A stretch of DNA of 64,000 bases, taken from the NCBI GenBank assembly GCA_008632985.1, contig QPGO01000058.1, positions 62,001 to 126,000 of the forward strand. Reading direction: 5' to 3'. Position 1 is the stretch's first letter; each line of letters starts with the position of its first letter. A program made the position numbers and the translations under genes. This document shows, in pieces, positions 22,213 to 60,614 of this stretch. Under the pieces are notes generated by a model. The model was not told the origin of the DNA, made no database searches, and worked only from the letters and a program-made list of their open reading frames with translations. The DNA comes from Psammoneis japonica. Lineage: Eukaryota.

Positions 22213-22270
22213 AAACAGTTTGCATCAAGGCAAACAGCAAGACTTGTCTTCTGTGGCTCAAAAAAAAGCA

Positions 22271-29637: not shown

Positions 29638-31633
29638 CATCAGAGTGCACGACATCGTAATGTCTGCACACATGACAAAAATGTGTTGCCACATTGTAAA
29701 ATCTACTTGTCTGCACATGATGGTTTTTGTTATTTGGTTGATCATTGATCTCCTGCTGTTCTTCATGTTTGAACACAGATGCTTTTTAATTTTTGTGCTC
29801 AGCCTTTTTCACAACAACTGACGATCTTTAACGACAAGCCAAACATTGCAATTGCATGCAATGAAATTTTCATCATGCAAAGTGTGCACCAATCATTTGA
29901 TCAACAACTGTGCTCCAATTGGCCTGTTCGTCCACATCGTCCTCTTCATTCCATGTGTCTTGTCCGCTCTCTTGCAAGAATTTCAAACACACATGCCGCT
30001 GCCGCGTTGGATGTTTCCTCGTCACTCTTCCAAAAAAGCCACACTGCATTTCTTGCATTTGGGCGAACATCATCGAGAGGAAGAGGTCCCTCGAAATGCA
30101 GAATCGCATCGCTGCTCCCCTCTTGACGTCGTGTTGTCTGCTTCTTTTTCTCTTTCTTCATTTTTCCCATCCTGTTTTTCTCTTCCTTCTTCGTCTTGGC
30201 GCCACCTGTTTTCACCGTCTCCGGTGTCTTTCCATCCGAATCCTTCTTTTTCATTGATCCTGTTGCCGTCGCCTTCATCGTGTGTTGCTTTGTTTTGGAT
30301 CCATGTTTCTGACTTCTCTCCATGCCATCCCCATTTCCGAATGTTTCTTTGTGATTGTTCGCATGCGTCACTTGAAGGCACCCACGTGTTCTTCATGCAC
30401 CTTGACGCGTGTGTAGAAATCCATGTTGTTTTCCAGTGCATGAACCCTTTCTCCTGATGCTGTTCCGCACAACATTTTCTTCCATCAATTCTACACTCCG
30501 CATTGCCCTTTCCTGGTGCAATCTCACATGGGATTTCTCTGGGAGAAGTCACATGCGCGTCTGGTGGGTTTTTGTGTGTGAAACTCCAAATCCTGCCAGG
30601 CGCGCATGTGGCTTCTCCCATGCACCACTCTGGCATGTTTCCACAGAAACCAGAATTTTGTGACTGACGCACGACCAATCTGGTGAATGCAACGGCGGAC
30701 CCACGACCACAACAATCAGAGCATTAGAAGAAAACCATGTCAGATGAACTCCGTCTGTCCGCTGCTGAGGATTTTCGTTGCCGGATGATGGAGACAGTTG
30801 GTGGTTTTGTTCACGCTGATGCTGCTCGTTGTTCAGAGGAACAGAGAGCAAAGGATGCAAAGGCTGCTGTGTCAAGATCGGCAGAAGCAATGGCAGAAGC
30901 CCGTTGTGCCATTGTGGCTGCAACGACCGCACTTGACAGTGCTTTGTTAAATCAAGCAACAACCACTCGCGAATTTAAGCACATCTGTGCGCAGTTGATT
31001 AAGTCATCGATCGAGACACACTGTTCAGACAATGACTGTGTTGTTGCAGTGGAAAATTGCAGCAAAGCGGAAATGAGTCTCCAACGCTTTCTTCACGGCA
31101 ACGCATTTGTGACGCAAAAGAATTGGGGCTCCCAATCTCCGTTGCGGGACATCAAAAATCAGAATTGAGGCTGCACATGCTGCACAGCTGTGACTCGACG
31201 TTGCTTCTGAGAAGCCTCAGGGCAAATTCTGACACAGACGCCAACAGAGCAGTGGAGAGGGAGCAATCTGCAATTGACAGCATCAACAAATCCATCCACT
31301 GCCGTGCCGTGCCACTCCTTCGAAGGCGACATCTAACACAGCCGCTGCGCATCCTGAAGGCTGCAATCACGTTGCTCCACGGGGCCCTTGACGATTTGAG
31401 AAGGAAAGACGTTGCCTTGCAGCGACAGTGGCAAGCTTTGTATGATCTGTGGCCAGGCACAGATCAAATGCGGGGAGGGACATGGACCGCGATCCGGGCT
31501 GTGGACGAAGAAGCCATGGCAAGAGAAAGGGTCCTGCAGTTGGCATTGCAAATCGAGGCACAATTGGTGGCTGTCAACCAGCCTGACCACAGCGCCGACT
31601 TTCAGCAGGCGATTGTGGCTGCCAGGGAACATT

Positions 31634-34600
31634 TCATGGTGCAGGATGACCAAATGGACCATGCAAGTGGACACTGCATAGAATCTGTGAGGAAGCAATT
31701 GCTCTAAAAATGCACACACTGTGAGTGAATGACAGATTGATGCGCGTGTCCCATTTTAGAAACAAATCTGACCAACACTTCCTTCTGTCCTGTGTGGCCC
31801 AAACAAATGGGGCCTTTTCTTGCGCTTCTGCTGCTCCTGGACATTCTTCATAAACCAAAACATTGTCCCCAATTGCTTCGACAGGGACAACACGTAACTC
31901 AGGTGAGTGCTGAGTCTTCTCAGGCATTGAAAGCCAGTTGTTTCGTTTGTGATCAAGCTGCCAGCGACCAACCAAGTCTGCATGCTGACACCGTTGCCTC
32001 ACAGTTCTCTGGTCAGCTTGACAAGCAGTTGGATGGACAACTGCAAAAATCGATCCTGTGTCTTCCTGTTCGAAGAAACACAGCAAACGGGAGGGAAACT
32101 GTTGATCACCCTTTCGTGTGCCAAAGGTCACATGGGCAAAGTCACACCATGGTCCTTTGCTTTTGAAATCAGGGTGTGCACGGCATGTGTCCCTCCCGTT
32201 TGCATTGCAAAACTCTGTCTTACAAGTCAGGTGTGTATTTTCACTGTCTTCACCAACACAATCCTCCCACTTTTCCGACATGAAGTTTAGCAACACCGGA
32301 TGAACTTGGCAACGAGTGTGCTCACTGTTCCACTCAAACGTCACAGCGCCGATCCCTCGGTTGTGGGTGAGAGTGAACGCACTTCCTCCCAGCATGTGAT
32401 TGTCCATCCTGACTCTTGATGATTCCTTTTTCCCAGTTAGCAAAATCCAACTGTTAGCTGAAATTGCGGCATTGAGCCTCATTTGGTCCTCCACATGCGA
32501 CACGACCTGCTTCAGAAAACTGTCGAGGTTGCATTGTTGTGTGGCAGATGACGGCAGCTTGAAAAAGTCTTTCAAGAGACATTCCCCCAAGCCTGCATCA
32601 AAGTTCATCGCGTGTCGGTGACAACAAAGAAACACTGGGAGATGGAGTGTTTCATGAAGCTTTTGAAGCTTCCATCCGTGTCCTTCTGTTCGCGGGACGA
32701 ATTGCACCATCTGGTCAATGAGGAGACAGATTTTCTTGTTTATTTTCTGAACAGATGAACTGGGAGTCACGCTTGTGATGGGTGGATCGCCCAGCCTGTG
32801 CCATGCATGGAAGACAAGAAGGTCCTTGAGCAATTGAATGAATTGCCGGACGCTGCAGTTGAGTCTTTTTCCCTTGCATTTTTTCTTATTTTGGTTGTCG
32901 TCACCATCCTCAGCCTCACTCTCCTCTTTCTCATCCTCATTTTCATCCCAGTCACCCTCTTTGGACTCCTCCGACCTTTCATCGTCAGAGTCGTCCAAGT
33001 GCTCACTAGGTTGGCAGCAACCCTCAAAGTTCACTTTGGGCATGTTGCAATTCTCTGGAACAATGGGCTCGTCTGCGTCCTCGTCAAGGAAGCATGACTC
33101 ACATGCATTTCGTCCCTCGCTGGTCAACAGGAGAAGGTAGAAAACAAAAGCCATTCCAGCCCAGTGGTGAGAGTTGAGGAAGGCAAGCGATGTTGCTCCT
33201 CCTTTGAAGTTTGTTTGCAAAAAGGATGCTTTGCAAGTTGACCTGTGATTGCTGAAAATCCTTTCCACTGTGCTGTCCACCTCACTTGCGACCACAGGTG
33301 TCATGCTGTCTACAAATGAATTGATCACCCTTTTCAAGGTGCCGTTTTCAAAGAGATGCATCATGTCGCTTGCTGTCGCAAGGGTGACGCCGCATGGTTG
33401 TGCGCCAAAGTCTGCCTCAAAAAGACAGTTGGCAGGCACGTTGTGTTGCTTGAGGCAATGCAAGATGCCCAACCAGTGCTTCCTTTCTTGGTCTGATCTG
33501 TTGTCATCGTTGGCCTCAGTTTGCACTTGGTGAAGATCCAGTCCTCAGACAAACTCACATTCAATCCATGGGTCGTCCAGTTTGTTGAAGCCAGTCAGGC
33601 AAAAACGACAGCAACGTTGACGACAGTTGTGACCTCCGCATCGTCCGACGAAACAGTCACTGCTTTTTGCATCTCCTATGATGAGAACGATCAGTGGGAT
33701 TGCGTGGAGGCATCACATCTCATCCCCTCGTCGCACGCATGTTTTCATGCCTCCTTTTCTCATGACTTCCATAAGTGGCTCCAAAATGACATGCAAGCAA
33801 GTGTGGCAGTCTCTTGACGAGCGTCCCTTCTCTGCCTTGCGATTGTTTGAGAGATTCTTTGCCGCAGATGACGACATCTTTTCCAAATCCGGGAGATGAC
33901 CAATTGGTTTCCAGACACTCTTGTCCGACCATTTGTTGAAGGCAACATGCGCAGAGGTCATGATCACTGGTTCTCCGCAATGTGATCCCATCCCTTGTGT
34001 CCTGCCAGTCTTGTCGAGGTAAATGACATTGCACTCGAGAGAAATTGTTTCTCCAGGTCAGTCATCCGTTCTTTGTAACTGTGCCTGCACCACTCACCCG
34101 CCAAAAGGCACTTGTCATCCGGTCCCTTTGCTTTTCACCTCCCAAAAGGATTGTCTGGATCGGCCACATTCTCTCTGCTGCACCACAGGTGAGGATCGAG
34201 CAAAAACTGTTCCCAAACCTTTGTGAAATCCCATCTTGGTGCTGACACTCATTTTGGCAAACCAGTTTTGAAATTTTTTGTTTCTAGAGTGACAGGAATA
34301 GACTCGCTGGGTGGAGGAGGGAAATGCTTGGTTAAGGTGCGCATCAACTCTTTTCTCCTTGGCAGAACTGCACCAAGCTTGATGTTGCTGTTGCCAGTGT
34401 GCCTCTCAATGAAATCAACAATGCAGTCGTACAATTCCAGGGGAGCACCACGTGTGTCCATGAGCTTCTTGCACAACTCTACGCAAGCTCCATCAAGATT
34501 TGTCAAAGAGGGAGTAGAAGCCAAGGCCTCTTCTGCAGGAGCGTCATGCCTCCTCCCCAAACGTTGATCCTCATCGTCAATGTCCTCTTCCTCCTCCATT

Positions 34601-35028
34601 GTCATGTCCAACACTGCAGCAAAGGATTGACCACCACCAACATCCAAATCGTTCATTGCCAAAAGCTCAACTCCTTGCATGCTGTGGTTTGATGAAACAG
34701 AGGACATGTCGTCCATTCCGTGCGGTGCGTCATCCGGGGAGGGGAACAAGGGGCTGCTGCTCGGATCACTCGTTGAAGATCTTGGGAATCTGCTGCGAGT
34801 TGATTGCCTCGGATGGGATTTGTCATCATCAGAGGACAAAGAGGAAGAACTGCCGCTTTCTTTGGGTGGCCCCTCTGTTGTGGCAGGAATGTCGCTTTGA
34901 TCTGGGATTGGATCTTGGGTTTGCAACTCTTGTGCAACTGAGTGACACGTCGGTGAGTGTCTCCAATGGCAGGCCATTCGCAAAAAACTTTGGCCACAAC
35001 CGGGACAGAGAAGAGGGTTTCCGTCCAT
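31634..35028 (-). pseudogene. Plavaka-type transposase remnant
   Basis: N-terminal CPGCGQSF...HWRHSPTC, then GEPVIMT, WKPIGHLPDL, IIGDAKS, DMMHLFENG, GWKLQKLHETLHL, NFDAG.GE..LKDF.K and RAHPDFKSKGPWCDFAHV. Broken by stops and frameshifts. Confidence 0.75.
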
Positions 35029-35535
35029 TGTAAATCAGACAATGTTGACAGGGCCTTCATCAAGACTCATGCTCGTTGCCCTTGTCTTGTGGATGAGAAG
35101 GGAAAAAAGAACAACACACAAAAAATGCCGGGAAATTGGCAAACATTACATTGTCTTCCAGATTGGGATGATTCTTGTGGGTGTGACGTGTCTGCATTTT
35201 GATTGTTCATCTGGCATCCACAATGAACATTGCACTTTTTATTTGCTGTCAAAATGCAGGATGTCATCTCTGTTGAAACGCAATGACAGCCATGTCAAAA
35301 AGCAAGTTGGGCTGTTTGTTGTTGCACACAAATGTGTTTTCAAATTTCAATGTTGCTGACAACAATTTGTGCAATGTCACAGAGAAAAATGGAGTGCCTG
35401 GCTGTCTCAACACGACCCAAACGATGGCTGCACTGTCGAACAGTGCCACTCCTCTCATTGTTGCCGTGAAAAGATCAAGATGTCGTCTCCAGCACAACCG
35501 GCAAAAAGAGAAAGAAAAATGAGACTGTTGAGCCA

Positions 35536-36777
35536 ATGAGCCCAAGACTTCAGGCAGTGTTGAAGAGAACAGGTGCGCAGGCAGCGCATGGTGCATTGAA
35601 ATCAGAAGCAGAGAAGGTGGCTAGAAATGATCTCTTTCCACAGGTGAAGTTTCTCAGTCCATCAGAATTGGCAAGCAATGGGAGCGTCTCAATGTTTGTC
35701 AAGAAACGGATTGCTGGTGGCAACATGGACACTTCAAATTGGTCAGGAACTTGGGAGGAATGGGCAAAAAAGGCGGTAAAAAGGCAAATTGACAATCGCA
35801 GAAACACGGTGTGTTCAGCTGTTGGGGCGGAGGCAATGGCCCGCAAGTCAAGTGACCAATGTGTGTGATTAGAGAGTTGCATGTGTCTCACAAGAAGATG
35901 ACGGTGATGCTTTGTCTGTGTGGGCATTGTCACTGAGGAAGAGGGAAAGGAAAAAGAAAAGAAACTCAAGGCGGCAAACAGGAGGAAAAAGAGGAAAAAG
36001 TCAAGCCATGACAAGAATGAAGAGAATGACATCCCATTTGTGCTGACATGGGATCCGTTTAGCCTGGACACTGTCACTGGCGGCAAACGAAGGAACAAGC
36101 AGGCACGCAAGTGGTTCTGTGATCACATCCTGCCTCAAACCAAGCAAAAGCAGGCATGGAGCAGCACCGTCAAAACTGGGAACGCACAGGTCTCACAGTT
36201 GTTTACGGTCGGTGATGAAGCTTTGGTGCCATCAGCTGTGGAGAATTGTTGGCAGGTGTGGGCATGCAGGAACAAGGAGGAGGCGGTGGAAGAATTGGGT
36301 GAGGAAATGGAGCCCAAAGAAACAAGGCCTGCCCCTCGGCACACGAAGCCAAAGAAACAATGAGTGTCTTGGGGAGACGACGGAATCAATCGGTTCAACG
36401 ATTTGTGCAAAGAGGTGATGAAAGATGGAGACTCCAAGGAGGGCAAGGAGTTTGAAAAGTGGCATGCGGAGATCAAGAAAAGCGAGCACGAGAAGTCCGG
36501 AGAAGCAAAAAAGAAGAAAAAGAAAGCACCAACCGGCGACACGGATGAGGTGAAGGCAATGAACAGCCTGATGGTGGAGAGCAGCAGGGATGACAACAGT
36601 GATGACGATGAGCAGGAGGAAGGTGCAAAAGGCAAAATGGACGATGGAGGAGACGAGTCCGATGGAGACGAGTCCGATGATGATCGTCAGCTTGGTTTGA
36701 GAGAGTTGCAGCAAGAAAATGTGCGCACAGTTTACATGGCACTCGGTCATTGCACTGCAGACGTAACAAGGGATTGA
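35536..36777 (+). pseudogene. Accessory ORF of the Plavaka-like element, divergent from the transposase
   Basis: LFPQVKF...KAVKRQIDNRR, TVGDEAL...ENCWQVW and WGDDGINRFNDLCKEV resemble the accessory protein I associate with such elements. Acidic tail; internal stops. Confidence 0.6.
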
Positions 36778-37701
36778 CCCAACCGATGAAATGCTTTTTT
36801 TGTTTAAAATGATGTTTACGAAAATTAACAAACCAAGGATTGTGTGGAAATGCAGTCGCGCATTGGCACATGGCAACAAGGTGGAGGCAGACACAGCGAT
36901 GTGGATGTGGTGAAAAACAGCACACATGATTCTTGATGAGTTGTTGCAACATTGGCACAGCAAACTTGTGACCAGAGGTTGGCCTTTCATCACATGACAA
37001 TGATGTTTTGCAACATTTTGACAAATTGTCATCATGCAAATCTACACATTTTTAACATTTCGTGCACTCTGATGTTCTTGACGTGGTGTCAGAATTTTGC
37101 TGAGGAAGTTTGCTGAGGATGCTGCTTTGCTGACACAGGGACTGTGGCAAAGGGCAGGAACACATGCTTCCAAGGCTCACAGTCAGCATCCAGCCTCTGC
37201 ACAAGCTCTTTGTACATCTGGGAGCAACAGGATGATGGTGACACGTAGTCCATCAACAAGCAAACGCACCGGCCTCGAGCTACGTACGACGTACGAACAG
37301 CACTAGTACTGAGACTCACGTAGCCTTCTACAGTCATATTTTTTGTCACATTCTGGCCTCTCGCTCGTCATTCCGCGCTTTTGGAGAGACAGGAGCGACA
37401 GACGGCAGATTTGGAGGCCGCAGCGCAAGTAAATTTCGGAAAGGTTGTTGTGTCCGTTCGTTTGATGGATGAGGATGTTAGGGTTGTTTGACATCATCCT
37501 TTACGAACATGACGATGCGTGCCAATAAATGTTGCCGAACATTTATGGTGTTGTTTTTATGTTCGGTTCGCATCTTGAATCTCCTACGAAAACAGACTTC
37601 CTTTGACACCCCCAGGCTTCTCGCTTCGCCTCGAGAGCAGCTGTGATCACAAATCACAAATACGATTGATTGAGAACACTAACAACAACGCTAACAACAA
37701 A

Positions 37702-42000: not shown

Positions 42001-43962
42001 GATGGTTTGGGAAACTGTCGCAGGGCCTTTTAGTGAAGATTAGTAGAGAGAGGTGCGTATCAAAGGACGAGTTCAATGAGATAAATGCGCCATTGATTCT
42101 TCGATTATTAGCAGACACTGGTCATGGATGGGTGAATGTGGCTGTGTGATAAACAATTAGACATTAACATCTTTTAGCTGAATGAATTTGCTTCTCATCA
42201 ATTTCGAAAGGCTCTTCGATTGCATTTTGCTTCTATGTGAAATGGAGTCAATGAAAAGGAAGACGGTTGTGAACACGAAACTGAGGTGGTGTGCTCATGT
42301 GGACATGGCCATCAAAGCAGATGTTGTGATGGTTTTGTGTGCTGTGCATTTTTGTGTCAATGATGACTGCACATTGTTGTTTGCACAGCACAAAGCAAGC
42401 TCATCATGTGAAACCAGACTGGAACGATGATCTTGCATTCACATGTCACTCGCTCTGCTGCCACCAATTTTCTGGTGATCAGCTCTGGCTGTCAATCAAG
42501 GGAGATGCTGCTTGTGATCAACAAATGTTTGACAGATGCACGTGCCAAACAAACCATTCCATCCATTTTGGAATTATGTGCATGCTTTTGATGGTGTCTC
42601 CAATGACCACCTCTGCTTTTGACTGTGGCACTCTAACTTTTTCATCAAGGTGTGTTTGTGGCTTGCCACCAAGAAGGAGCGTTGGGCAGAGCACTCTTGC
42701 TGCATGATGAGGGAGTTTGTTTTGAGCTCTCACACGATTTCAAATTGGCAATCCAGGCAACTGGTGGTGGACATGAGGTGTGCCAATTTGTGAAGCTGTG
42801 TTGCAGTGCACTGATTGCACTGCTGCTGCTGTGGCTCATTGCACTTGAAGCAGTTTGAAGAGACCATTTCTTTTGCATGAACGAGCATTGTTTCTTCTTC
42901 ACAAATTGGAAGCTTGTTTCTCTTTCTTGAGCAGTGTTGATCTCAATCACAACAGAAAGAGTTGCTTCAAGCTTTGTGGTGCTCATGAGTGCTGCATCAT
43001 GTTTGTTTTAGTTGAGACCCATGCTGATTTTTGATGCCGATGCTGTGCAGCAGCAGCTGATGCTCTTTTTGTGCAGGTTCAATTGTTTTGTGTCCCTCAT
43101 CTTTGTCAGGGAGTGCATTTTTGTTGTTCTGGCTGACCACTTTGGGGACACCAGGTGTTGGTGTCTCCAAATCTTTGGGTTGTTTTTGCAAGAAGAAAGA
43201 TCATGTTTTGATGGCCAACCACATGCTCTAATTTCTGCCAAGCCAAGTTGCAATCTAGAAAGATTGCCACATCACTGCTTGATTGCCGTGTTGACAGGAT
43301 GAGCAATCATGTTCAGTCCAGAGCAGACATTTGTGGTGAGATGAGAAATTGTGGCACCCACACTGAGAAGGAGCTCTGACTGGTTGCAGTTTAAACATTC
43401 TTGTGACTTGTGACAATGTGAGCCATGATCAATTCAAGAATCTTTCCATTGTCCAATCACAAGTTTGTGGTTTGGCATGTCAGCATCTCTCTGCAGCAGG
43501 AAAAAAATCAGCTCTTTGACGTGTCATTGTCACAAATGCAAGCAAGGTGCATCTGTGTTGGCAGGCAGAGAAATGACATTGACAAAAAATGACAAAACAA
43601 TTGTCATGTGCTCCCTGATGTTGCATGTTGAGGGAAACCCATTTTTTGTGCCGCAGTTGATGGCAAAAACTGGAGCTCATGTGCACTTGTGTTGCTGCTT
43701 CTTTGCATCATTTCTCTGCAGTCATTGTTGCTGTCATCACTGCTGCCATCCTTTTTTTTTACTTTCCACAAATGCGTGCATTCTTTGTGACTTGTGCACC
43801 CTCATTAATTTTGAATTCTTTGCTTGTGGGCCATCTGAAACAGATTTTCAACCCAACGGTGCTTCCAGTGATGAGATAAAGAAAGTGACATGAGGCCCCA
43901 CAGAAGGCAATCAAAAAATTCAAGCAAGCAAGAAAAGAAGCTGCTGGACCATCATTGCAGTC

Positions 43963-44020
43963 ATGGCCTTCATCTTGGTTTCAATGGCTGTTGTTGCTCC
44001 TGTTGTTCTGACTCAGTCTG

Positions 44021-44089
<69 letters not shown>

Positions 44090-45642
44090 CTTCTCTTCTC
44101 CTCAAAAATGTGATCAGAGAGTCATTGTTCAGTGAGGGAGACACACCTGCCCCCAGTGCAGTTGTTGCAGTGGACTTGTTTTTCCCATGAACTCTCCCAC
44201 CCATGGACCAAGCCTTTTGGAGTTAACACCAAAGAAATGATGCCTGAATTCTCACCCACTTCAGCATCAATTCTTCCACCATTGGCACTGACTTTGTCCC
44301 CATTGGCTGCTTCCACAAGCTCCCCCTCAACACCTCAAACTGCCACACTCCCAACAACTCCAGTGCTGACCACATTTTTGGCAACAACCTTGTCTCCTTC
44401 AGCTTCTCCAATGCCACCATCATCCTCCACACTGCTTCCAACTCTTGCACAAGCAACTTTGTTTCCTGTGGATTCTCCTTTGGTCATGACCATCATGTCA
44501 CCAACTGCACCTCCCCTTTTGATGCCTTGGAGACTTCAAGCAAGAATGCTGCCAAACAACATTGCATCATGTGATCACTTTTCAGTCCGAGTGTGATGGT
44601 CAGTGGAAACGCAACTGTGGTGGGTTCTCCTGCTGCTGCTGATGAGGATGGTGACAGAAGTGGCACTGCCTGTGTTCATTTGTGGAAGTGTGCATGTTTT
44701 TGTCCAGACAAGTGTCACACAGAGCCAACAGGGCAAACTGGTTGGCAGTGTGACCTGGCATTGTCACATGACTGCTCATCCTTCAACACAGCTGTCAGCA
44801 GCAACACGGTGCTCATTTCCTGTTCTTCTGATGATGGCCATGGCAAAAGCAGTGGTGGTGCTTCTGTCTTTGTTTGGTCTGGCTCAGCCTGGAGTCAACA
44901 AGCAAAATCACAGCCAATGATGCCATTGCCGGAGCAAAGTTCAGTTTTGACATTTCAGCCAGCAGCAACACTGCAGTTGTGGGTGCTCCACATTTCATGA
45001 CAAGGGTCAGGCACATGTTTGCACCAAGACAGGCTCAATGTGGAGCCAGCAGACCAAGTTGACAGCCAGTGGAACCATGAATCAAGTTTGCTCCTTTGGC
45101 TGCAGTGTTGGCATCAGTGGGGTGTGGTTGTTGTTGGGGCTCCTGCTGGCAGATTGCTGGCTTGCATTTTTAGGTTCACAAGCGGGGAATGGATTCAACA
45201 AGCATGTGGCCACAATCCAGAATGGGTGGATTTAGCTTGAGTGTGTCCATCAGTGAATACAGTGCCATTGTTGGTGCTCCACATGAGGACTCAAACCATT
45301 GAAGGGCCTTCATTCATGTCAGCAATGATGGGGGATTTTGGAGAATCAAAAAGCAACTTGCAGATTTGTCTTGTTGGGATGAGCATTGTGGTGACTGTGT
45401 TGACATCTCTGATGATGTGGCTGCAGTTGGCACATGTGAAAAAGATGTGGGCTCAAACAGTCCACAGGCTCAAGGGTGCCACAGTGGCACTGGCTTTGTT
45501 TGCAACAAATTTGCAGAACCAGTTGTTGCATGAAGAGCAAGGGGGCGGTCAGAGATGCAGAGCAGATTCTCAGTGTTGCAGTGGAAGGTGTCCTTTTGTT
45601 CTTTGTGTTTCAAGTGCATGTGAACAACAGCTGATGCCATGA
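43963..45642 (+). pseudogene. Degenerate secreted FG-GAP-repeat (beta-propeller) protein with Pro/Thr/Ser-rich stalk
   Basis: Signal-like start and P/T/S-rich segment. Fragments in shifting frames: VSGNATVVGSP, GKSSGGASVFVWSGSAWSQQAK, ITANDAIAGAKFSFDISASSNTAVVGAP, WSQQTKLTAS...FGCSVGISG. Confidence 0.7.
44021..44088. repeat. (AAC)n microsatellite, about 22 units
   Basis: Uninterrupted caacaacaa run. Confidence 0.95.
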
Positions 45643-46279
45643 AGCAACTGAAGAAGGCAGAAAGCTCTTGGGTGCATGCCCCTCAGCAAGAAATCTGCCA
45701 AGTGCTGCCAAATGACTTCATCCACACTTTTGAAATGTGGCAAATGGCAGTGTTCTTCTGACAAGCCATGCCATCAGCCCAAGTGACTGGCAAACAGACT
45801 TCTTGCAATGATGCTGACAATGCTGTCAACAACACAGGTGGTTGATTTGCCATTGACGGCACAAAACATGACAGCCTGACAGAACTTCCAATTTTGTCAT
45901 CAGAGCACGCAACATGGTGATCATCACACATCTTTTCATTGTGATTTTTGTTCCTTTCACAGACAATTTTTTTATGGTTTCAAACCTCATCAGTTGTGTG
46001 GCTGGCAATGACATGTCAACTGTGACAGATTAACATTTTTGTGCTGTGGGATCAGACCCCCCCTCCCTGTGAGAAAAAATGTTTCACCATGAAACAGGGA
46101 CACGTTTTCCCTGTGAGAGTGCCCACCCTCTATCCCTGCAAAACCTGTAAATTAAAATCATTTGCATTGCACCATGAACACTCCATTTTGTTGTTTACAT
46201 TTAAATTAAATGACGCCGATGGAGACAACACCCCAGAGTCTGCAGCAGTTGCAGCTCACTTTCTTCAAGTGCCACTGCT

Positions 46280-47400
46280 TGCAGCCACCTTGTTCATTGC
46301 CAAAAAAGTGCAGAATGCGTTGTGAGAGTACAATGTGGATGAACTGACACCACCAACAGGAACAGCAACATAGACTCACCGGTGCATCCGGCACCGCCGA
46401 TTCTGGAGCAGGTGAGTTTGTGGCAGCTGCTGCAGTTCTCTTTCTTGAAGAGCCACTGCCAGCACTGGCAGCCACCTTGTTCATTGTTGAACGGTGTAGA
46501 AAACGTTGTGAGAGTGCAACAAAGATGAGCCAACCACAGCCAATGGAGACGTCAATGCACAGACTTGCCTGTGTGTCCAGCGCCGCTGATTCCGGACCAG
46601 GTGAAGTGACACTGCTCTGATCCACCTTGTTCATTGCAAAGAAGTGTAAAATGCTTTGTGAGAGTGTGTAGGACAACAACAGCAACCAATTGAAACCGCA
46701 ACATGGACTTGCTGGTGCATCCACCGTGGCCGATTCAGTCGCTTCTGCCGCCGGTTCCCGACCCCGCGAAGCCGATTCAGGACCATGTGAAGCAACATTG
46801 CTCTGATCCACCTCATTCAGTGCAAAGAAATGCAAGGTGCTTTGTGAGAGTGCACGGGACAACAACAGCAACCAATTGAAACCTCAACGCAGACTCACAG
46901 GTGCACCCGCCGCCGCCGCCGATTCGGGAGCTTCTGCTGCCGGTTCCCGACCCATCGACATGGAATTGGCAGCTGCTGCGGTTGTTGCAGTCGACCCCCC
47001 CCCTGCTGCTCTTGACTGCAAACAGCGGAGAGACTTGGGAAGCCTTTAAAAATGAGCCCAATGACTCAGGCAACCTCCAATGGGTTGCCTCCCCACTCTC
47101 TGCCTCTCAGTCTTTCTGGATCTGGACACAGAAATTGGAGAAGACGGATGCAACGTAAGTGAACACATCAAAAACAAATGAAGCTCTTTTTGTGCATGCC
47201 TTTTTTGAAGAGTGTCACACATGGTAAAGAACTTTTCACATGAGTGATTCTGAGAGCTGCAGGAACAAGCACCGCCTGCAGTCTTTCTGGGTCTGGACAC
47301 AGAAATTGGAGAAGACGGATGTGTTGTTGGCGAATGCATCAAAAACCAATGAACCTCTTTTTGCACATGCCTTGTTTGGACAGTGTAATTTATGGCAACT
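46280..47400 (-). repeat. Tandemly repeated modules resembling exon+intron units
   Basis: ccacctYRttcaKtg...tgtgagagt recurs at ~46286, ~46473, ~46622 and ~46808, with agactcac (GTGAGTCT donor on minus) between units. A second unit cagtctttctggRtctggacacagaaattggagaagacggatg occurs at ~47108 and ~47279. Confidence 0.7.
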
Positions 47401-49693
47401 TGTGATGATTCTGGATGCAAAACTCTGACGTGCGCGATTATGACAATGCTGTAGAAAAGCAAGTTTGTGACGTGCGTGCACACAACACACAACAACACGC
47501 CAGCAGCTCAGCATTCTGGACGCGGCAGATTCGTGACAGCACACTCGCGATCCCAAAATTCAAGCTGCGCCTGAACAAAACCCCATCTTGACCAACCAGA
47601 AGGATGGCAGGTATCACCACATGTTGAGCTGCTGTCATCGGCCAATGGGGTGAAGTCTTTCACCACCATGGCTGGTTGTCGATTTGCAGATTTGCGACCA
47701 CACGTAGGATCCACGTGAATCACAACAGCACGCGCTCTCGTTTTTCAAACTTTGGGGAGAGGGTGCACTGTTATGAAATGTGTAGAAAATTGTGCATGTA
47801 AAACACATTCTGAAAACGCCGTAGACCAACGGGCTGTGCAAAGTGAAGAAAAATGAAGGTGGGTCACGTGTGTGCGTGAAGTGCTGCAGACTGCACACGT
47901 GCAAAGACACACACACGTGAGTGAGGAGGACAAAGTTAAAACCAAGTTCAAATTGATTACGATCAAAAGGAAACCAAACCATGCACAACAAAAAACAGAT
48001 TTTGACCCTAATTAAATTAAACATTGCATGCATTTGATTGAAGCTTGTGCAAGAAAAGTTAATGAGACATCAGATGAAATGCAAAAAACAGCTTCATTTG
48101 ACAATGCACACTCAAAATTTTACAAAGGAAAGTGGAAACCACTACATTGCCACCTCTGATGGTTAAGATTGCAGCATCCATTAAAAAGGCAGCCTGTTGG
48201 CACTTGTGGATTCCCCAAACTGCCTTGAATCTGTCAAGTTGCACGCAAAGCATGACAACCATGGCAACTTCAGACAATCCAGGTGAGTGGCTGGCGCACC
48301 ATGTGCTCTTGTGAGCTGTGTTCACCTGTCTCTGATGATTGACATCATGTGAGCTTGGACTCATGTTGGAGGCAAAATGTGTTTCAGAGAAAGAACGATG
48401 TGCATGTTGACTTTCATCCTCCAAATGCATCCATGCTCATGCTCTGCTGCTTTGTTTTCTGTCTTTCTTGTGGAGCACATCCAGGCAAGAAACTGGACAT
48501 GAAGCTTGAGATGCAAAATGAAAAAGGTCAATGTGGCCACAAAAAGGCAAGGAGTTCTGAGAACATGCTGCTTTCTGCCATCATGCTGCAAGCCAGAAAT
48601 GACACTGACCACTGGATTTTTGACTCATGCTCTGACTTGTGCAAGTTTGTTGCTGACCCAAGAAGTGCTGGGAAGAATTTTCAATGGTGCCCAATGGGAG
48701 CATGGCATCAACAAGCCCTCTGCTGTCTTTTTGGGTTAGAAGCCCTCCAGATGTCTTTGAGTCAATGTCAACTCCATCGTGCAAATCACACCATCATAAT
48801 TCAACCCTCTCCCCAAGATTCTTGGGATCTCCAGCACAAGCAATTTCATGAATGCTTCAAGCCCATGATCCATTTCATGCTGCTGGGTCAGCTGTAAATT
48901 TTTGCATCACCAGAACCAATGAGACAGCACTTGGCTGCTTCCATCAGCACAATCACTTTGGGGTGATTGTGCTTGGCTGCTGCTGCTGCACTTTGTTTGT
49001 TGTGAGGGGCACAAGGGCAGTGAGAAGCCATGAGTCCAGCAAACAAACAAACAGAAAGGCACTGCACCCCCCTTTGCACAACAATTGCATGCAGCCTTGA
49101 GCCAAAGCCATGAAGCAAGTCATCAACGAATGCCTCGACACTGTTGCCAGCATGCATGCTCTGTGGTTGAGCAGCAAGGAGGATGGGGTCAAGTGTTTCT
49201 GGAGCAAAACGTGTGCATGCTTGGCAGGTCCAGGACGGCAGCAGCAGTGGCAGCAGCAGTGCCAGCAGCATTGGTTGAGGCTGGCAAAAGCACTTTGTCA
49301 GCAGCTTGCAAGACTTCTGAGGGTGCTGTGGCTCATGGCACCAGTTGAGGATGTGTGGACATGCTCCAGCTCTAGGTGGGACCTTGCACTGCTGCACTGT
49401 GACATCAACAGTTTTTTGGATCGCATCGCATGTCGCGCACGCACATTTCTGCGTGTCATGTTCTACGAAATTGTTTCATGCTCCCTGTTTTGCGAAGCCA
49501 AAGGCTTTCTATTTTCAACATTTGTGAGAACAAAAATGTGCTGGGCACATTCTTTAATGTCTGTAGAACACACCTGGGCAAACTGTCAATGATGCACTGC
49601 AAGCATGAAGGAGGAGATGCATTCGTAAAATTGCCTCTTTTTCTGTTGGCGATCATTTGCATTTTCATGCAGCACAAATTTGCTGCGGAGCTC

Positions 49694-51903
49694 TCATGCA
49701 GAATTCTGCGGGCCCTTGCCATGCACTCGAGCATGAGCAAATGGGAGAGATCCATGGAAACCTGTTGCCGTTTCATCGCATGCTGCACATGTCCAATCAA
49801 TGAGAACAAACACCTCATCGTTCCTGTCAAAAACAACATTTTCAACTCGCACGTCAAGGTGAACAACATTTCGGGCATGAGCATGACTCAGTCCGGTTGC
49901 AATGTCCATCCACATGCTTTGTGCCACTTCCTTCTTTGGTTTCAAATTGACCTCCACAAGTGGAGTGCCTTTGCAAGAGATTGGGATGGCGGGAACGGCT
50001 GCAGCCGTCTGGCGGATTTCACAAACAAGCTTTCCCATGCCACAGAGATGAGAGATGTTGTTGCACTTCACTCCAGCATTCAACGCACGCAGTGCGCGCA
50101 TTTCCCATGTAATGTGTCGGGTCTCCCCAGCTCGAGATGCTTTGATGCACTGGTTTTCGTCATTGGAGACCCTGCACACAGTGCCATGAGCCCCGGCACT
50201 GACCACTGCTCCCGCAGACAGATTTTTGCCAAATTTTAAAGTCGGGGACAATGACCATGGATGGAAGGAAGCAGTTTGATTCTTTCATTTCTGATTGTCA
50301 AAAAAGGATGTGCCGAGACTTTCCTCTGATGCATGCAACAACTTCCAAAGTTGCTCCAACCCTTCCGGGACAGCAGACTTCAATGAACCTGGCGGAAAGA
50401 GCTTTTTCTCGAGATGTTCTCCAGACTTGTCGTTTGTCACCAACTTCTTGAAAATGTCTTGATCGACCAGTGGGAACATCTCTGCATGGCTTGTCTTCAC
50501 CTCCACACTGAGAGTCCCCATGTTGACAAGCTGGAGCCGCAATGCTTGCATGCAGACCGGTGTGAGGATTGGCCCCATTGCACTTCCGTCCACGCCTGCA
50601 TTCCCCAACTCAAAGGCAATGAGCAGCCATTTCGCACCATGCCCCACCTGCTGTTTCATGTTCTCCTCGTGCATGCTCTTTGCACTCCGTTGTTTGCTGG
50701 AGACATTCTTGACTTCCGCAGCCCCGGCCATTGTCTCCATTCGCAGCATTTTCGGTGCGCATTGGCATGACTTGCCAATGTCAAAGTCCAAAGAGCGCCC
50801 CATGCCAACAGCATGAGTTCGAGCAAATTTGCTTTCCCAGTGAATGTCTTCTCGTCCACTTGTGCCCATGTGCGACAACACTTGCATCAAGCTGCACATG
50901 AAGCCACCTCATCTGGGAAAACATGGACACCACATCACCTTCACTCTTCTCTTCATTTCCCCAGGACCAAATTGATTGGCAGTTTGTTGCATGCCAGAAA
51001 TGCATGACTCTTTGTCCTCAGCACTCCAGCTCCACTGCAATGGCTCCTTGAGCTCAGCTGCTCCAATCAAGTTGTTCCAAAACCTGGCGAAACGCTCTAA
51101 ATCCGTTCTCACATCCTCACACCCCACTGTCCACCAAGGGTTGACTGAGGGGCTGTTGACTGCATCAACGAACTTCTTCTCTTGCGTGCAAGGGCTGGGA
51201 ATCTTGACCCCATTCATCAATTCCTGAACTTGGCTCAAGTGAAACGATTCATCATCAGAGGTCACGCAACTCACTGACGAAAGACCGCTTGCCGTCTTCG
51301 TCTCGTTTTTGTTGGAAAACAGACACACAGATTCTTCATTTTGTTTCGCACCTCTTCCAGTCTTCCTGCTGACTCTTGCATTGGTTCTTCAATGCAACAA
51401 TTTAGACCAAATCCTGTGCTGCGGATGACGTTTTTTGCTTCATGACAAGACTCAGCATTGCTTTCCAACAAACACTTCAATGTGTCGTTCATTTCTGACC
51501 AGTCTGGCTCCAAGTCATGATTGCGCATGGTTTCATCTTGCGCAAGGCTGTTCACAAGCCCTGAAACCAGTTGCTTGCTGCTCTCGGGGCCACTGTTCGT
51601 GTCGCGCGACAGTTCATGGAGGACCTTTTTCGCATCTTTCACTTTTTCAAACCGCTCTTTCCAGCATTGGACAGTGCCTTTTGGAGCCTTGGGAAAGAGA
51701 GAAATGAACAAATCCAAAGCTTTGTCATCATCGCATGTGTGTTCATTCTCTGTAACTCCGTCGGCGGCGGTGGGCTTGGTCACGACAGCATGCTGACCTG
51801 CGCGATTGGTGCTCTCCCAAGCCCGTCGCTGTCTTTTCCCAATTCGAAAGGCAATTGAATCATCGTTGCTTTCGAGATCCCGTTTCGTGTCCGAAGTCGC
51901 CAT
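49694..51903 (-). pseudogene. Degenerate protein kinase-domain gene
   Basis: C-terminal kinase fold: AGAHGTVC (Gly loop), IKAS, LSHAHARNVVHLDVRVENVV, VLIDW and GSLPFA. Upstream fragments back to ATG 51903 are broken by stops and frameshifts. Confidence 0.75.
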
Positions 51904-52445: not shown

Positions 52446-54068
52446 CTATCGCCGACGGATTCGCCTCGCAAGACGCTTTCCAATCCAATCTCGTTTACTA
52501 TGGGGCAAAGCCAATGAAGCATTACTTGTAGGCTCAACTTCATTGATAGGATCCTCAACTGTTTTCACCTCTTCTGGTTTTAAATCGACTACCATGACGC
52601 TAGAAGAGTCTGCATCCACGGTAGGTGCCAATTCTTGAGGCCTTCTGTTCGAGTACTTGCCTGACATGCGCCCTTCCAATTCTTCTTCTAATCCCTCCAC
52701 CATATTCGCTAGCACAATCACGACATTGTAAGCTCCCCTGCCTGAAGGTTGCCGCAATTCATTCACGATACCCAATGTAAGAGCTATACCGAAAACAATA
52801 AAGGAAAGATACCAGGATTGGACCTTTAGAATACCCAATCCACCAATAGTTTGCACACCAGCACCCAAAACGGGGAATGTACAGAGCACAACAGCAGCCA
52901 AACTATACAAAAGTATCATATGTATTGGAGGCAACTTCTTCTGCAAGGCACCCAATCTTCGGGCACGAGCTTGTCTCAGAGCTCGCACGGTTTTGTAAAT
53001 GATGCTTGGTTCTCCAACCGAGGTTAGAAACATGACGCGCTCAAAAGGATCGTCCACCGGACGAGCTGATAACAGCACAGCTGGTTCGGTTGCGGTTTGA
53101 AGCAAATCTTCACGGACGTAAACATCAATGCACTCCAAGATGGATTGATACATGGCCTTGCGTCCTTGACAAACCAGTGCAACTTGCTCCAGTAATGACT
53201 TGGCCACAGTCACCTCGTCAAAGAGTGCATAGTATATTTCTTCTTGTTGTTGATACATGAAATAATAAGTTTGTCCTTAACAAGTGAGAGATGGTGTTGA
53301 GTTAGTGACACAATAGAAGTAATAGTCAATAGCACTTCTACTTTGCATGGTGTAAAGGGATAGAAAACAGTGCTTCTTACCCACAAGAATGGAAAAGGTG
53401 AGTCCGCATGTTGTAAGAATGTTCTGAATATACTGCGAGTTGTCTTGGGCAATCACACCAAAGGCCTTATAGTCGTCAATCATTGCCGCCAGTGTAAGAG
53501 ACAAAGCTGGATAGACAAATGCCGCAGCGGCTCCAAAGAGTAAGGCGGGCATCCCGACACGAAGCAACGTGACAATCTGAACATAATTCTTCAATTCACG
53601 AGGATCGTCCTTGAAGTCGGCCGACACAAAGTTCTTAGCAGCTACTTCCCACACGGAAACACTCCCTCCCATATCAAGATTCTCATAAAGGCTTTCATGG
53701 TCTCTGACAGATGCAAGAAGAGAAGTCGCACCCGTGAGTCGGATGGGATATCTATGCAGGTGCGACGTAGTAGCACCGAAACAACTGAGTTTTGCGCCCA
53801 TACTATGCAGGGGTGATGACGATCTAGTAGTTGCTTGAGTGGGAAAAGAGAAACCCTTGTTTGCCATACAGGCCAAAATTATCATTGACATGAAGAATGT
53901 TGTGTATGAGCAACATGGAGGGCGGTTGCGTTTTCGCGTCATGTTGCTAATGTCGTCGGTAATCATCATCGTGGGTCGGTCAGAGAAGTGAAAAAGAGAT
54001 GGATGATGGATGCGGGTGACGGTTGATGGACAGGACAGAACCGAAGCCATTCTTTCAACAACGGCCAT
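52446..54068 (-). CDS. Integral membrane protein, possibly DUF4239-like and plastid-targeted; intron 53380-53276
   Basis: Splicing gives CGLTFSILVGQTYYFMYQQQEEIYYALFDEV. About four TM segments. The true start may be 53942 or later, ahead of a signal-peptide-like FFMSMIILACMANKGFSF. Confidence 0.75.
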
Positions 54069-54109
54069 GTCAAAGCAGTGGCTGTGCTCATGTCTTTGCT
54101 TGGTCTAGC

Positions 54110-54600
54110 TCAACCTGGAGTCGAGAATGACACAAGAGAAGCAAAAAAAAAACTTGCAGCCGACAGTGTGCCCTGTTGCCAAAAAAGAAAACTCACCAGC
54201 TTCCCCCCCCCCCCACCCAGCGCTTGCTTTTGAAGCACAGCAAACGACTGTCTTCTTCCAAAAAGCTCAGACATTGACCCCAATAACTGGCAGCAGTTGC
54301 TCCAAAAGGGTGCCAGCAACACCACAATGAATGCTGCTGTTGCCCCAGCTTGATTTGCCTCTCTGCACGAGCAAAACAGCACTCCAGCCTGTCGCTCTTG
54401 GGCTTTCCGAGAGCTGCCTCAAATGGATGATTTTTTTTGTCATCAAGGATTGTTCGCACATTTTGGATCTGTGGCCAACCTGGTCCTGCAAGCCAAGCCA
54501 CTGCGAAAAGGCAAGGAAAGCTGGAAGCCAAGCAACGCAAGCGAATGTGAGGGCGGAGATTTTGGATCTTGAGAAAGCACACCAAACTGTGACTGATCAG
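54110..54600. other. Short TpA-depleted island between divergent genes
   Basis: Only one TpA seen between 54110 and 54600. Confidence 0.6.
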
Positions 54601-54783
54601 TGCTACGTCATTGTATGAGACGATCTTATCGTGGGTTTTACACACGTAAGATTTATACCAGTGGCTACGCAAAGAGGCAGCTGCTTGGCATCTCGCTGAA
54701 AAAAACACAAGGTCTGTGTCATCGCAACATCAAAGCCGTCGTGGTCTCTTCTAAAGAACATCATCTCGAGTAGAACAGACATC

Positions 54784-56099: not shown

Positions 56100-57555
56100 G
56101 TTTATTCAAAGTACTTTGCACAATAACAGCAACGCAAAATGCCGTCAACAACAACAACGTGCCGCGAGCGGTCGAAGCGTGGAGAATGCCGCAGAAATTG
56201 CTGTTGTCTGTTGTGTACGTTTGTCGTTTAGATTTTCGTATGCGAAGATAGACTGCATGCTACTGAAACGCAAAATTTGCGAATCGCAAATTAATTTATA
56301 AAAACAAATAGCTCGAATTTTTTCGCGATGAAAGCACGTGCGAGGTCTCTGAGTGCTTCATTTTTCGCTTCAAATGAGCAAATGCTACTGTTTCGACAAC
56401 CGAAGGTCTGTAAGTGACATGAAATAACAAACCAATCAGATTATTATCATTATGAAGAGCTATATGACGTTTTGTTTGTGAGGAAAGGCGGTGTAATCAT
56501 CCAAAAAGGTCATTTTTTGTTGAAATCTTGCGATGCGTCGGCATGAGTCTGCACCTTGAATTGCACCAGAGGATGTTGGCCGCGTCGCAAAGACGATCTT
56601 GGAGGGTGACAAGGGTCGTTTCTCGACTCGCCGCGCGATGATTTCGATTGTGCGGGGATTCGGAATTTGTCGCAAATTTTGCGATGTCGCAAATTTTTCG
56701 ATTCGGTAGCATGGAATTTTTGGCGCGAAGTTTTAGTAACTTCCAAACTTGTTGTGCTCTTCGTCTTGTCTTCGTCGTAATCTTCCTTTCAGATGAAGAC
56801 CTACCGCATACATAGTGTTAATTAAGCACGGTTGACTTAGCTGCTTCGTTGCCGGACGCCGACTGGGTGCCAGGTGCACTTCCTTGGTGTGGCATGAACT
56901 AGTCTTCCGTAGTGCAGACAAGAGAAATCGATACAATCATTCACGATCCGCGGGCATGACATTACGGAACCTACAAAAAAGGCTCTTCAAAGACCACCTC
57001 GACAACTCAACCGAAGAGTGGACGATACTCGGTCTGTGATGAATCCAGCATCCAACTGAATATGGAGAGGTGGCATCGTCGTCTGAGTCGGAATATGCAT
57101 GCAGGAGGAAGAAAAACAAGCTACGACAACTGCATCAGAGCCGCGAGTAAGCGCTGCCTGCTCTCCTTGGTGTTCATAATGTCATCATGAAGTAAATTGC
57201 ATTGTCAAGATCGCACACGTTTTTGAACTCCATTTACGTAGTGTATGGAAACTCCAATGATATCCATGCTACGCTATTGTAGGTTGAGGTGTCGATTACA
57301 GTATTGGGGACTACTGGATTCAGCCTATAAATGTAGAGTGACGTACAAGACGAACCGGCAGAATCGACCGACCGATCTTTCTTAAGTTGAGGGAGTCAAA
57401 AAGCTTCAGAAGGCTGGTATGGGTGACCAGAGCTATGAGCGAAACCGTTTTAGCAGAACAATGCGATCAGGACGAAGAGGTTTTTTGTCGTGGAGTATTC
57501 ATTTACGAGAAGTGAGGTATACAGCCTAAATACAGATATCGAAATAGTCAAATTT

Positions 57556-58098
57556 CTACACCACACCCGTTCCCGACTGTTTCGTCAATTCCATATCTGT
57601 AGGATGCCCGTATCGTTCTTCGATTCTCTCCTGACGAGAATAGGCTGCGGAAACTCGCAAAGCAATGCCCAGTACGACGAAAATTGCAAGAATACCGCCT
57701 AGTATGACATGGACAATATACTTTTGGGCAATTTCCGTACATACAAGATCATCACACTGCGGGTGCGCCGCATCCCATTCACAGCGAACCCATTCCTCCA
57801 TCTCGTCAATGCAAGCTCCGCAAGATCCTTTGCAACGATTCATCGACCGGCAAAGTTCGTGTTCTAGAACCACGCACTCGCCCCTGGATTCCACATTGGA
57901 TTCAAGCTCCTTCAGAAGACAAGAAGTGCAATCCTCGCTTCCAGTGACACCAAAATCCGTCAACAGGCACGTCACAAGAGAATCCATGTTGGATTCGCAT
58001 GGATCATAATCCCACACTTGTTGCGCCGCTGAATCTCTCGTCCCAACGGCAAGCAACAGCGAGACGACTTGAACGACAGAGCAGACCGCAGGCTCCAT
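57556..58098 (-). CDS. Small type I membrane protein with Cys-rich ectodomain
   Basis: 180 aa: signal peptide, multiple Cys, single TM (IVHVILGGILAIFVVLGIAL), short tail. Degenerate duplicate at 61.0-62.7 kb. Confidence 0.75.
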   Translation of the reverse strand: MEPAVCSVVQVVSLLLAVGTRDSAAQQVWDYDPCESNMDSLVTCLLTDFGVTGSEDCTSCLLKELESNVESRGECVVLEHELCRSMNRCKGSCGACIDEMEEWVRCEWDAAHPQCDDLVCTEIAQKYIVHVILGGILAIFVVLGIALRVSAAYSRQERIEERYGHPTDMELTKQSGTGVV

Positions 58099-58248
58099 AG
58101 TTGTTCTGAGATACAGTCTTTTGCGAAGAGTGTTTATCGTGGAGAAGCAAGAGAGATGGAGATTTTAGTTCCCCCACGATCCATGACTCAAAATGAACGC
58201 GGTTGAATTTTTGTTCCTCCAAAAAAATCTTGTGTGGGCTATTGCTTG

Positions 58249-60340: not shown

Positions 60341-60614
60341 TGAGCAAAACTGGTCAAGTTTCATACAAGGGATGAATGAATCTTTGAACAGGAGGATTGC
60401 ACCCAATCTTCTGGCTAGAATCACGTCCAGCGCCAGCCGCGCTCTTTGCGCTGAAGGCATCGGATGGCGTGTTCGGTGATCTGCCATTCAGACAGACAGT
60501 GTCTTCTTTCAGACGCTTGTTGTGCAGATGGATGAAAAGTTCAGCAATGAAAACATCCAAAACAGACCACCTTTAGAAACAATCTGTGGCAAATGGAAAC
60601 GGCCTTCAAAATTG

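Follow-up and report, generated by a model that had tools for sequence, protein, structure and literature searches.

Sparing of YTAR sites during TpA loss in discrete blocks of a Psammoneis japonica contig

Results

TA-poor blocks in the window

We analysed 64,000 bp of contig QPGO01000058.1 from the Psammoneis japonica assembly GCA_008632985.1 (positions 62,001 to 126,000, forward strand; hereafter the window, whose own numbering is used throughout). The window is gene-dense, with a G+C content of 48%, and contains stretches nearly emptied of the dinucleotide TpA (TA), in which the remaining TA sites are concentrated in the tetranucleotides YTAR (TTAA, TTAG, CTAA and CTAG; Y, pyrimidine; R, purine). 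Using a two-state hidden Markov model (HMM) over the whole window, we called six such blocks, which total 25,133 bp (about 40% of the window), lie between seven normal segments and hold 148 TA, 560 CG and 5,366 TG+CA (Table 1). Within the blocks, the observed/expected ratio (O/E) of TA is mostly 0.03-0.15, TG+CA is raised 1.5-2.1-fold and CpG is lowered to varying extent.

Intact genes of the window encode a protein with six matched helicase-associated (HA) domain stretches, an S28 peptidase, a GH5 glycosidase and a Toprim/AAA_25 protein. Among the named matches to the S28 peptidase, those from Triparma verrucosa (76% identity) and Tetraparma gracilis ranked first, with diatoms and oomycetes lower.

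Table 1. Positions of the TA-poor blocks, the duplicate pair and other features in the window
Feature	Position	Strand	Remarks
TA-poor block	19962..21357		1,396 bp: 4 TA (3 YTAR), 12 CG, 347 TG+CA
TA-poor block	21719..23016		13 TA, 8 YTAR
TA-poor block, 9.9 kb	27299..37242		58 TA: 24 YTAR, 4 RTAY; CpG loss partial
TA-poor block, 9.5 kb	42236..51751		62 TA: 27 YTAR, 3 RTAY
Short TA-poor block	53981..54601		2 TA
TA-poor block holding the mutated duplicate copy	60477..62834		9 TA, 6 YTAR
Region named in the earlier note	42121..46040		left part of block 42236-51751; 20 residual TpA, 13 YTAR
Normal-composition copy of the duplicate pair	57183..58193		ancestral-state proxy; 46 alignable TpA
Mutated copy, first part	60631..61450		73.6% identical to 57183-57949; ~91% on purine/pyrimidine scoring
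Mutated copy, second part	62525..62790		matches 57945-58193
Surviving TTAA in the mutated copy	60828..60831		homologous to 57382-57385 (T at 57383)
Surviving CTAG in the mutated copy	61365..61368		homologous to 57864-57867 (T at 57865)
636-aa open frame, kin to a transposon-type protein family	31637..33544	-	inside a TA-poor block

The blocks are real DNA. In a DNA run (X1, Logan contigs), the edge at about 42.1-42.2 kb was spanned by a single contig (37049-44011) with 6 differing letters in about 7 kb, and a second contig covered 44104-45939 inside block 42236-51751. The block sequence was present at a depth of 60, equal to that of neighbouring genes. X1 is possibly the sample behind the window assembly; it excludes polishing artefacts and is not an independent confirmation.

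Judged by X1 depth at ≥80% likeness, 42337-45671 (at least 3.3 kb of the block) is single-copy. Multi-copy stretches of the same block, to which many X1 contigs were recruited, lie at 45672-48339 and 49007-50340; 49007-49673, whose very high depth is probably due to low-complexity sequence of the CAG type, was not counted as a repeat family. A perfect (ACA)23 microsatellite occupies 44021-44089 of the block. Outside the blocks, 55677-57000 is normal in composition yet recruited many X1 contigs (summed depth 465-1,566), which indicates that a multi-copy element there escaped the TA purge, unlike its neighbours.

Screening of 113 open frames of the blocks against Pfam gave weak remnants only (Plavaka, FG-GAP and protein kinase), with no viral hallmark, and no viral gene was found. 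The 636-aa frame has three database relatives at 61, 42 and 39% identity. Homology to a relative (P0123) extends upstream of the frame to 34024 (minus strand), and a weak match to Plavaka transposase lies just upstream of the frame, at 33716-34057. The frame contains 2 Tyr residues, as against 18/571, 11/357 and 14/570 in the relatives, whose Tyr positions read Cys or His in it; this is evidence for the direction of change that is independent of the duplicate pair. Its survival as an open frame may be due to the fact that TA>CA/TG changes never make stop codons (only CGA>TGA can), together with partial retention of CpG. A metagenome scan with the alignment of this frame returned 49 related loci, which were used as controls only; none of the 49 was TA-poor (TA O/E 0.43-0.77, lowest 1-kb window 0.34).

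Contigs of another run, X2, showed spliced-looking skips of 37813-37915, 53274-53380 and 55851-55961 (about 100-110 bp each, the last with CT..AC ends). X2 is probably RNA, and the skipped stretches are probably introns of the flanking genes. Within 37001-57000, X2 covered the normal parts only, and we did not take the gap over the blocks as a sign of silence.

YTAR sites are spared in the blocks

YTAR accounted for 69 of the 148 residual TA in the blocks (46.6%) versus 259 of 1,553 outside (16.7%; Fisher p = 1.5e-15), and RTAY for 7 of 148 (4.7%) versus 482 of 1,553. The YTAR share was 41-75% per block and 0-18% per normal segment; with 200 bp cut from every block edge, it was 62/138. It also exceeded the null expectation from the first-order composition of the blocks (30.9%, p = 8e-5) and that from the flank classes of CA and TG within the blocks (21.8%, p = 2e-11). 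Among the related transposon-protein loci elsewhere, YTAR made up 1,370/8,225 TA (16.7%) in 32 loci with normal CpG and 574/3,499 (16.4%) in 11 CpG-decayed relatives (CG O/E < 0.3), in which TA is normal.

The sparing of YTAR had been proposed in the earlier note from two regions, and both counts proved exact: 13 of 20 residual TpA in 42121-46040 (TTAA 5, TTAG 5, CTAA 2, CTAG 1) and 4 of 5 in 19921-21360. The note had put the chance expectation at a quarter, which is too high, the true baseline being about one sixth. The comparison of NTAN tetranucleotides inside and outside the blocks, which it had suggested, gave YTAR shares far from those of unmutated DNA, as stated above.

Flanking bases can mutate themselves, and we therefore chose a transition-proof baseline, namely the TA share of all YpR steps in each purine/pyrimidine flank class. 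Survival of TA calculated in this way was 0.437 for YxxR (confidence interval (CI) 0.33-0.56), 0.135 for mixed flanks (0.10-0.17) and 0.022 for RxxY (0.006-0.039), so that YTAR outlasts RTAY about 20-fold. Survival of CG in the same classes was flat (YxxR 0.36, mixed 0.40, RxxY 0.43). Since survival is graded for TA while flat for CG, the context effect is confined to the TA process. The flanking bases do influence TA loss, and they do so independently of CpG decay.

Residual TA sites are clustered at 46148-46207 and 48009-48018, in short runs rich in A and T such as TAAATTAAAT. Neighbouring residual TA less than 30 bp apart numbered 33, versus about 24 expected.

Direction of change in a duplicate pair

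The window contains a duplicated sequence of which one copy is normal in composition and the other lies in a TA-poor block. The normal copy keeps normal TA and CG, and the mutated partner is without 44 of the 46 TA. Among these 46 sites, 23 read CA in the mutated copy, 14 read TG, 2 were kept and 7 had other fates. The change has run from TA to CA or TG. The two sites kept, a TTAA (~57382) and a CTAG (~57864), are those that the earlier note had singled out as retained, and they are the only survivors; accordingly, 2 of 6 YTAR sites survived versus 0 of 40 other sites (Fisher p = 0.0145). As for CpG, 9 of 54 sites were kept and 35 had become CA or TG.

Counted over the pair, transitions comprised 45 A>G, 50 T>C, 36 G>A and 25 C>T, with each transversion at 4-13; indels, as well as transversions, also separate the mutated copy from the normal one. 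Changes on the two strands of the pair are interleaved, and runs tests gave no sign of strand-coordinated change (z = -0.7 and -0.14). Further kinds of change, most of them listed earlier, were present too: cTAc>cCAc, TG>CG (3/57), CA>CG (1/80) and swaps between CA and TG (7/137). When the window was compared with itself in purine/pyrimidine code, no further normal copy with a mutated partner came to light, most of the weaker hits being noise of the two-letter alphabet.

The mutated block 60477-62834 is flanked by two direct repeats, both of normal composition. The upstream region and first codons of an MFS transporter gene (frame 62916-63902) are duplicated (60131-60323 versus 62837-63127), and a 38-bp piece of this duplicate also occurs at 56202-56239.

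The neighbour rule is graded

We fitted a Poisson half-site model in which the two strands escape independently of each other, the chance for each being set by the base 3' of its A; with four parameters, it described all ten NTAN classes (deviance 6.5, 6 df, p = 0.37). The estimated escape was 0.84 for TAA, 0.47 for TAG, 0.26 for TAC and 0.11 for TAT. Uniform survival was rejected (deviance 138.5, 9 df), and a plain R/Y model was worse than four levels (deviance 35.9; likelihood ratio p = 4e-7). When 22 related transposon loci served as an independent baseline, the ranking was the same (A 1, G 0.54, C 0.31, T 0.13). The second base had an effect as well: half-site survival by positions +1 and +2 was 0.33 for RR, 0.17 for RY, 0.106 for YR and 0.041 for YY. 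TAGA/TCTA is typical of the survivors, and the remaining CTAG sites are often found within TCTAGA.

YTAR therefore sums up well what is a graded rule: 3' pyrimidines promote loss and purines, A above all, protect. The enzyme-like TAY/RTA preference put forward in the earlier note stands in so far as the sparing is real, large and specific to TA, the half-site model fits and the products in the blocks agree with it; its division into R and Y is only approximate, as four levels fit better and the +2 base matters, and the products at polarised sites, given below, fall short of it.

Recognition per strand or of the whole site

Survival cannot part recognition of TAY on each strand from recognition of RTAY in the duplex, and the products of change were used instead. 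Per-strand recognition predicts that RTAR and YTAY sites turn into RCAR and YTGY, respectively. The share of RCAR+YTGY in its class rose from 0.311 outside to 0.514 in the blocks, while that of the opposite products, RTGR+YCAY, rose from 0.285 to 0.369 only. Expressed as a fraction of all CA+TG of the mixed class, RCAR+YTGY reached 0.582 in the blocks versus 0.522 outside (p = 4.6e-6), with 0.576-0.651 in the six blocks; no product asymmetry was seen in the 11 CpG-decayed control loci (0.359 vs 0.364). In a forward simulation run on the window's own normal DNA, the per-strand model gave 0.494-0.504 for RCAR+YTGY and 0.336-0.370 for RTGR+YCAY, as compared with the observed 0.514 and 0.369. A model with products at 50:50 gave 0.444-0.451 and 0.384-0.420, and the observed asymmetry was not reached. 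In the pair, T>C changes outside TpA were commoner after a purine (38/216) than elsewhere (17/231; p = 0.0014), and GTAT/ATAC sites had become GCAT/ATGC in 11 of 12 informative cases.

Other results weigh against a per-strand rule. At polarised asymmetric sites, agreement with it was 14/24 (CI 0.37-0.78), made up of 10/17 in the pair and 4/7 at Tyr codons (those after a pyrimidine); about 82% was predicted from survival, under which 14 or fewer of 24 has a probability of 0.006, and the count is compatible with no bias. TAT is the most vulnerable half-site by survival, yet the TAC side wins the competition at GTAT/ATAC by 11:1. This conflict may be explained by co-mutation of the flanking A (ATA>GTA, found at 4 of the ATA[C/G] sites listed). 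For the mixed class, additive rates predicted a survival of 0.098 and multiplicative rates 0.17, the observed value being 0.135, and the two rate models fitted the three class survivals about equally. Kept Tyr codons were 2/9 after a pyrimidine versus 0/7 after a purine, numbers too small to be informative (p = 0.48).

Alternatively, the duplex tetranucleotide would be recognised as a whole, by a dimeric enzyme on a palindromic RTAY-like site or through deformability of the TpA step, and either strand would be changed at random; YTAR would then be spared as the worst whole site and not for lacking TAY on each strand. The near-even product counts at asymmetric sites, the equally good fit of multiplicative rates and the lack of strand-coordinated runs in the pair all agree with this. 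The 50:50 simulation, which falls short of the product asymmetry, argues against it, as do the 11:1 outcome at GTAT/ATAC and the excess of T>C after purines outside TpA, which point to a strand-wise neighbour effect. We consider whole-site recognition unlikely, and recognition per strand is the probable reading.

CpG decay as a probable second process

CpG transition rates were 0.38 for ACG, 0.32 for CCG, 0.30 for GCG and 0.33 for TCG, showing no context effect. In 500-bp bins of 30001-31500, TA O/E was 0.07-0.10 with CG O/E at 0.69-0.99; as TA was lost there while CpG was largely kept, the two losses are separable. The converse was found in metagenome relatives of the 636-aa frame, in which CG O/E was 0.01-0.18 with TA normal (L020, L023, L025, L027, L031, L034, L043, L045, L046 and L048). 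Since CpG-decayed relatives keep TA, CpG decay is not the cause of the TA loss. Decay of methylated CpG accounts for the CG>TG/CA changes in the blocks, which are independent of the flanks, but it leaves TpA untouched and cannot explain the loss of TA. On the basis of the context-free CpG loss and of the blocks with TA gone and CpG largely kept, the C:G>T:A changes are attributed to a separate CpG process.

Differences between X1 and the window inside the blocks were CG<>TG/CA in 12 of the 15 listed. At 50861-50862, X1 reads CA and the window TG, a CA/TG swap polymorphic between two closely related sequences. The idea, also raised earlier, that YpR steps cycle through CpG is plausible, and the swaps lean in the expected way (RTGR>CA 3/17 and YCAY>TG 1/23, versus 1/28 and 0/14 in reverse), but the events are few.

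Discussion

Proposed mechanism

We favour, with a probability of roughly 0.54, a DNA-level TpA mutator with a TAY neighbour preference that acts on discrete stretches, in addition to ordinary CpG decay. The target stretches would be tandem repeats, degenerate copies of genes and what is left of transposons. The putative mutator would turn the A:T of TpA into G:C on either strand, making TG or CA out of TA. It would most readily hit an A followed by pyrimidines (T-A-Y, more so T-A-Y-Y), which on the other strand is a T preceded by purines, and least readily an A followed by purines, above all by A. With a poor half-site on both strands, YTAR would outlast the other sites. CpG decay, such as is ascribed to the methylation and deamination of cytosine, would proceed in the same stretches.

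The closest known system is the TpA hypermutation of silent, integrated viral DNA in Bigelowiella natans, described in the one paper found in a literature search for a TpA-erasing mutator (Mettrop et al., 2026 preprint, bioRxiv 10.64898/2026.01.13.699255). According to its main text, 231 of 302 new mutations fell in two integrated viral regions, and 230 of the 231 were A>G or T>C, all at TpA; 124 clusters in the genome combine a shortage of TpA with an abundance of CpA+TpG and are enriched for transposon and viral domains, and an ADAT2-like DNA adenine deaminase is proposed by the authors without test (bioRxiv 10.64898/2026.01.13.699255). The words flank, context, trinucleotide and tetranucleotide do not occur in that main text, while figures and supplements may hold a motif. 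The genome paper on Parmales makes no mention of dinucleotides, methylation or deaminases in its main text.

As far as the preprint's main text goes, the two systems share A>G or T>C changes at TpA that yield TpG or CpA on either strand, discrete regions beside normal DNA, tolerance of single-copy targets and a long-term footprint poor in TpA and rich in CpA+TpG. They differ in the host, which is a rhizarian there, whereas the window by homology belongs to an ochrophyte near Parmales; in the extent of loss, TpA rho being 0.45 in the viral region while TA is near-exhausted in the blocks (O/E 0.03-0.15); in the near absence of G:C>A:T there, as compared with the CpG decay overlaid here; and in the targets, which are viral there and transposon, repeat and pseudogene DNA in the window. 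The window is best filed as TpA-directed hypermutation of the B. natans kind, in what would be a second eukaryotic supergroup. The flanking-base rule is a new element, absent from the main text of the preprint.

Beyond the product counts described above, further points tell against the mutator as we propose it, or limit it. There is only one pair of a normal and a mutated copy in the window; the ancestral composition of the blocks was assumed; C:G>T:A changes are abundant (36 G>A and 25 C>T in the pair), unlike in B. natans; and a modified T that mispairs would produce a footprint identical to that of A deamination.

Alternative explanations

By analogy with the proposal for B. natans, we infer that the chemistry would be enzymatic deamination of adenine to inosine in DNA. 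The change could instead originate at the T: the thymine in R-T-A would be modified, for example oxidised by an enzyme of the TET/JBP type, and pair with G, giving T>C. In sequence, A>G on one strand is indistinguishable from T>C on the other. One block has a weak match to a Plavaka-type transposase; in fungi, transposons of this class are accompanied by TET/JBP genes. In dinoflagellates, 5-hydroxymethyluracil occurs preferentially at TpA. The window, on the other hand, bears no sign of such an enzyme or base, and the authors of the B. natans study, in the main text, propose adenine deamination, themselves without a test. We regard a T-side origin as quite improbable.

The residual TA might also be newcomers, formed after the purge by C>T at CA/TG with a creation bias to YCAR (for example TCA>TTA). 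Back-transition of a few percent of the 5,366 CA/TG would yield about the observed number of TA, and outside CpG, C>T changes in the pair were most numerous at TCA (5/38). However, each of the four polarisable residual TA (the TTAA and CTAG of the pair and two kept Tyr codons of the 636-aa frame) stands at an ancestral TA position. None of 137 CA or TG sites in the pair had turned into TA (upper 95% bound 2.2%); the C>T changes at TCA there created no new TA and were probably part of the CA>TG swaps. Moreover, uniform creation predicts 21.8% YTAR and 24.5% RTAY, as against the observed 46.6% and 4.7%, and this split needs context-dependent removal even so; at steady state, neighbours would affect removal about 10-fold instead of about 5-fold, and the conclusion would be the same in kind. 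The residual TA sites open to checking are survivors, and a general origin as newcomers is very unlikely.

A further alternative does without a dedicated enzyme. TA>TG/CA would simply be the local error spectrum of replication or repair in silent chromatin, where mismatches are poorly repaired or repair synthesis is error-prone. T>C after a 5' purine does occur outside TpA in the mutated copy, and CpG decay would supply T:G mismatches able to recruit repair. Against this, the loss of TpA is near total, compared with 38/216 at other R-T sites; 30001-31500 is without TA while CG is largely kept, and CpG-decayed relatives keep TA; and the process in B. natans, as described in the preprint's main text, shows a local excess of more than 1000-fold and strikes TpA only. 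Such an error spectrum is highly improbable as the cause.

Systematic transition errors at modified bases occur on some platforms, and the records of the runs do not state their library type, but an assembly, polishing or base-calling artefact is hardly credible, given that X1, perhaps the assembly sample, repeats the TA-free sequence at depth 60 and bridges a block edge with 6 differences in 7 kb, and that the mutated copy also carries indels and transversions.

Comparison with known systems

Repeat-induced point mutation (RIP) of filamentous fungi is likewise a DNA-level, dinucleotide-directed transition mutator that acts on repeated or foreign DNA and on both strands and leaves skewed blocks. 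RIP, however, makes TpA from CpA, whereas the blocks lose TpA, and it hits both copies of a duplicate, whereas here 57183-58193 is untouched and at least 3.3 kb of a block is single-copy. For the opposite direction and the untouched copy, RIP was rejected.

Hyper-editing of double-stranded RNA by ADAR resembles the present case in A>G changes with a preference for 5' U/T. The 3' neighbour preferred by ADAR is G, while TAG is relatively spared in the window (escape 0.47 vs 0.26 for TAC and 0.11 for TAT) and TAY is preferred. Because the blocks run contiguously across unrelated elements and tandem repeats and the changes on the two strands are interleaved, DNA fits better as the substrate than one RNA strand. 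ADAR-type editing carried into DNA was rejected, as neither a preference for 3' G nor one-strand clustering was observed.

The tRNA adenosine deaminases of the TadA/ADAT2 type offer a candidate chemistry for A-to-inosine conversion in DNA, and their A34 after U33 is a T-A context. The tRNA target of bacterial TadA is U-A-C-G, which would match TAC. Amphioxus BjADAT2, as reported in PMC10354150, acts on DNA in Escherichia coli in the contexts GAA for A and TCG for C. GAA is not T-A-Y, and CpG loss in the window has no preference for TCG (0.33 vs 0.30-0.38).

Implications

A defence that is RIP-like in kind and opposite in chemistry, erasing TpA, has been reported once so far, in the rhizarian-alga preprint as far as its main text describes it. 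The window presents the same kind of footprint in a diatom relative, carried almost to completion. The neighbour rule, with the fastest loss at T-A-Y(-Y) and the slowest at TAA/TTA half-sites, leaves TTAA, CTAA/TTAG and CTAG behind. It constrains the candidate enzymes, as it misfits both the 3' G of ADAR and the GAA of amphioxus ADAT2, and it can be put directly to the test on the 231 published de novo mutations of B. natans. The YTAR share of residual TpA provides a simple statistic for finding such islands in other genomes.

More tentatively, and with doubt outweighing confidence, TpA editing may be an old and widespread genome defence of SAR (Stramenopiles, Alveolates, Rhizaria), of which the TA-exhausted islands of this ochrophyte alga would be the end state, with a putative enzyme that reads T-A-Y-Y on single strands. 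If so, the sparing of YTAR, and of TTAA in particular, would be a fingerprint that can lead to the enzyme and reveal the defence in whatever genome carries it. The same reading may account for mobile elements that stay readable after the purge, as TA>CA/TG makes no stop codon and the 636-aa frame is still open.

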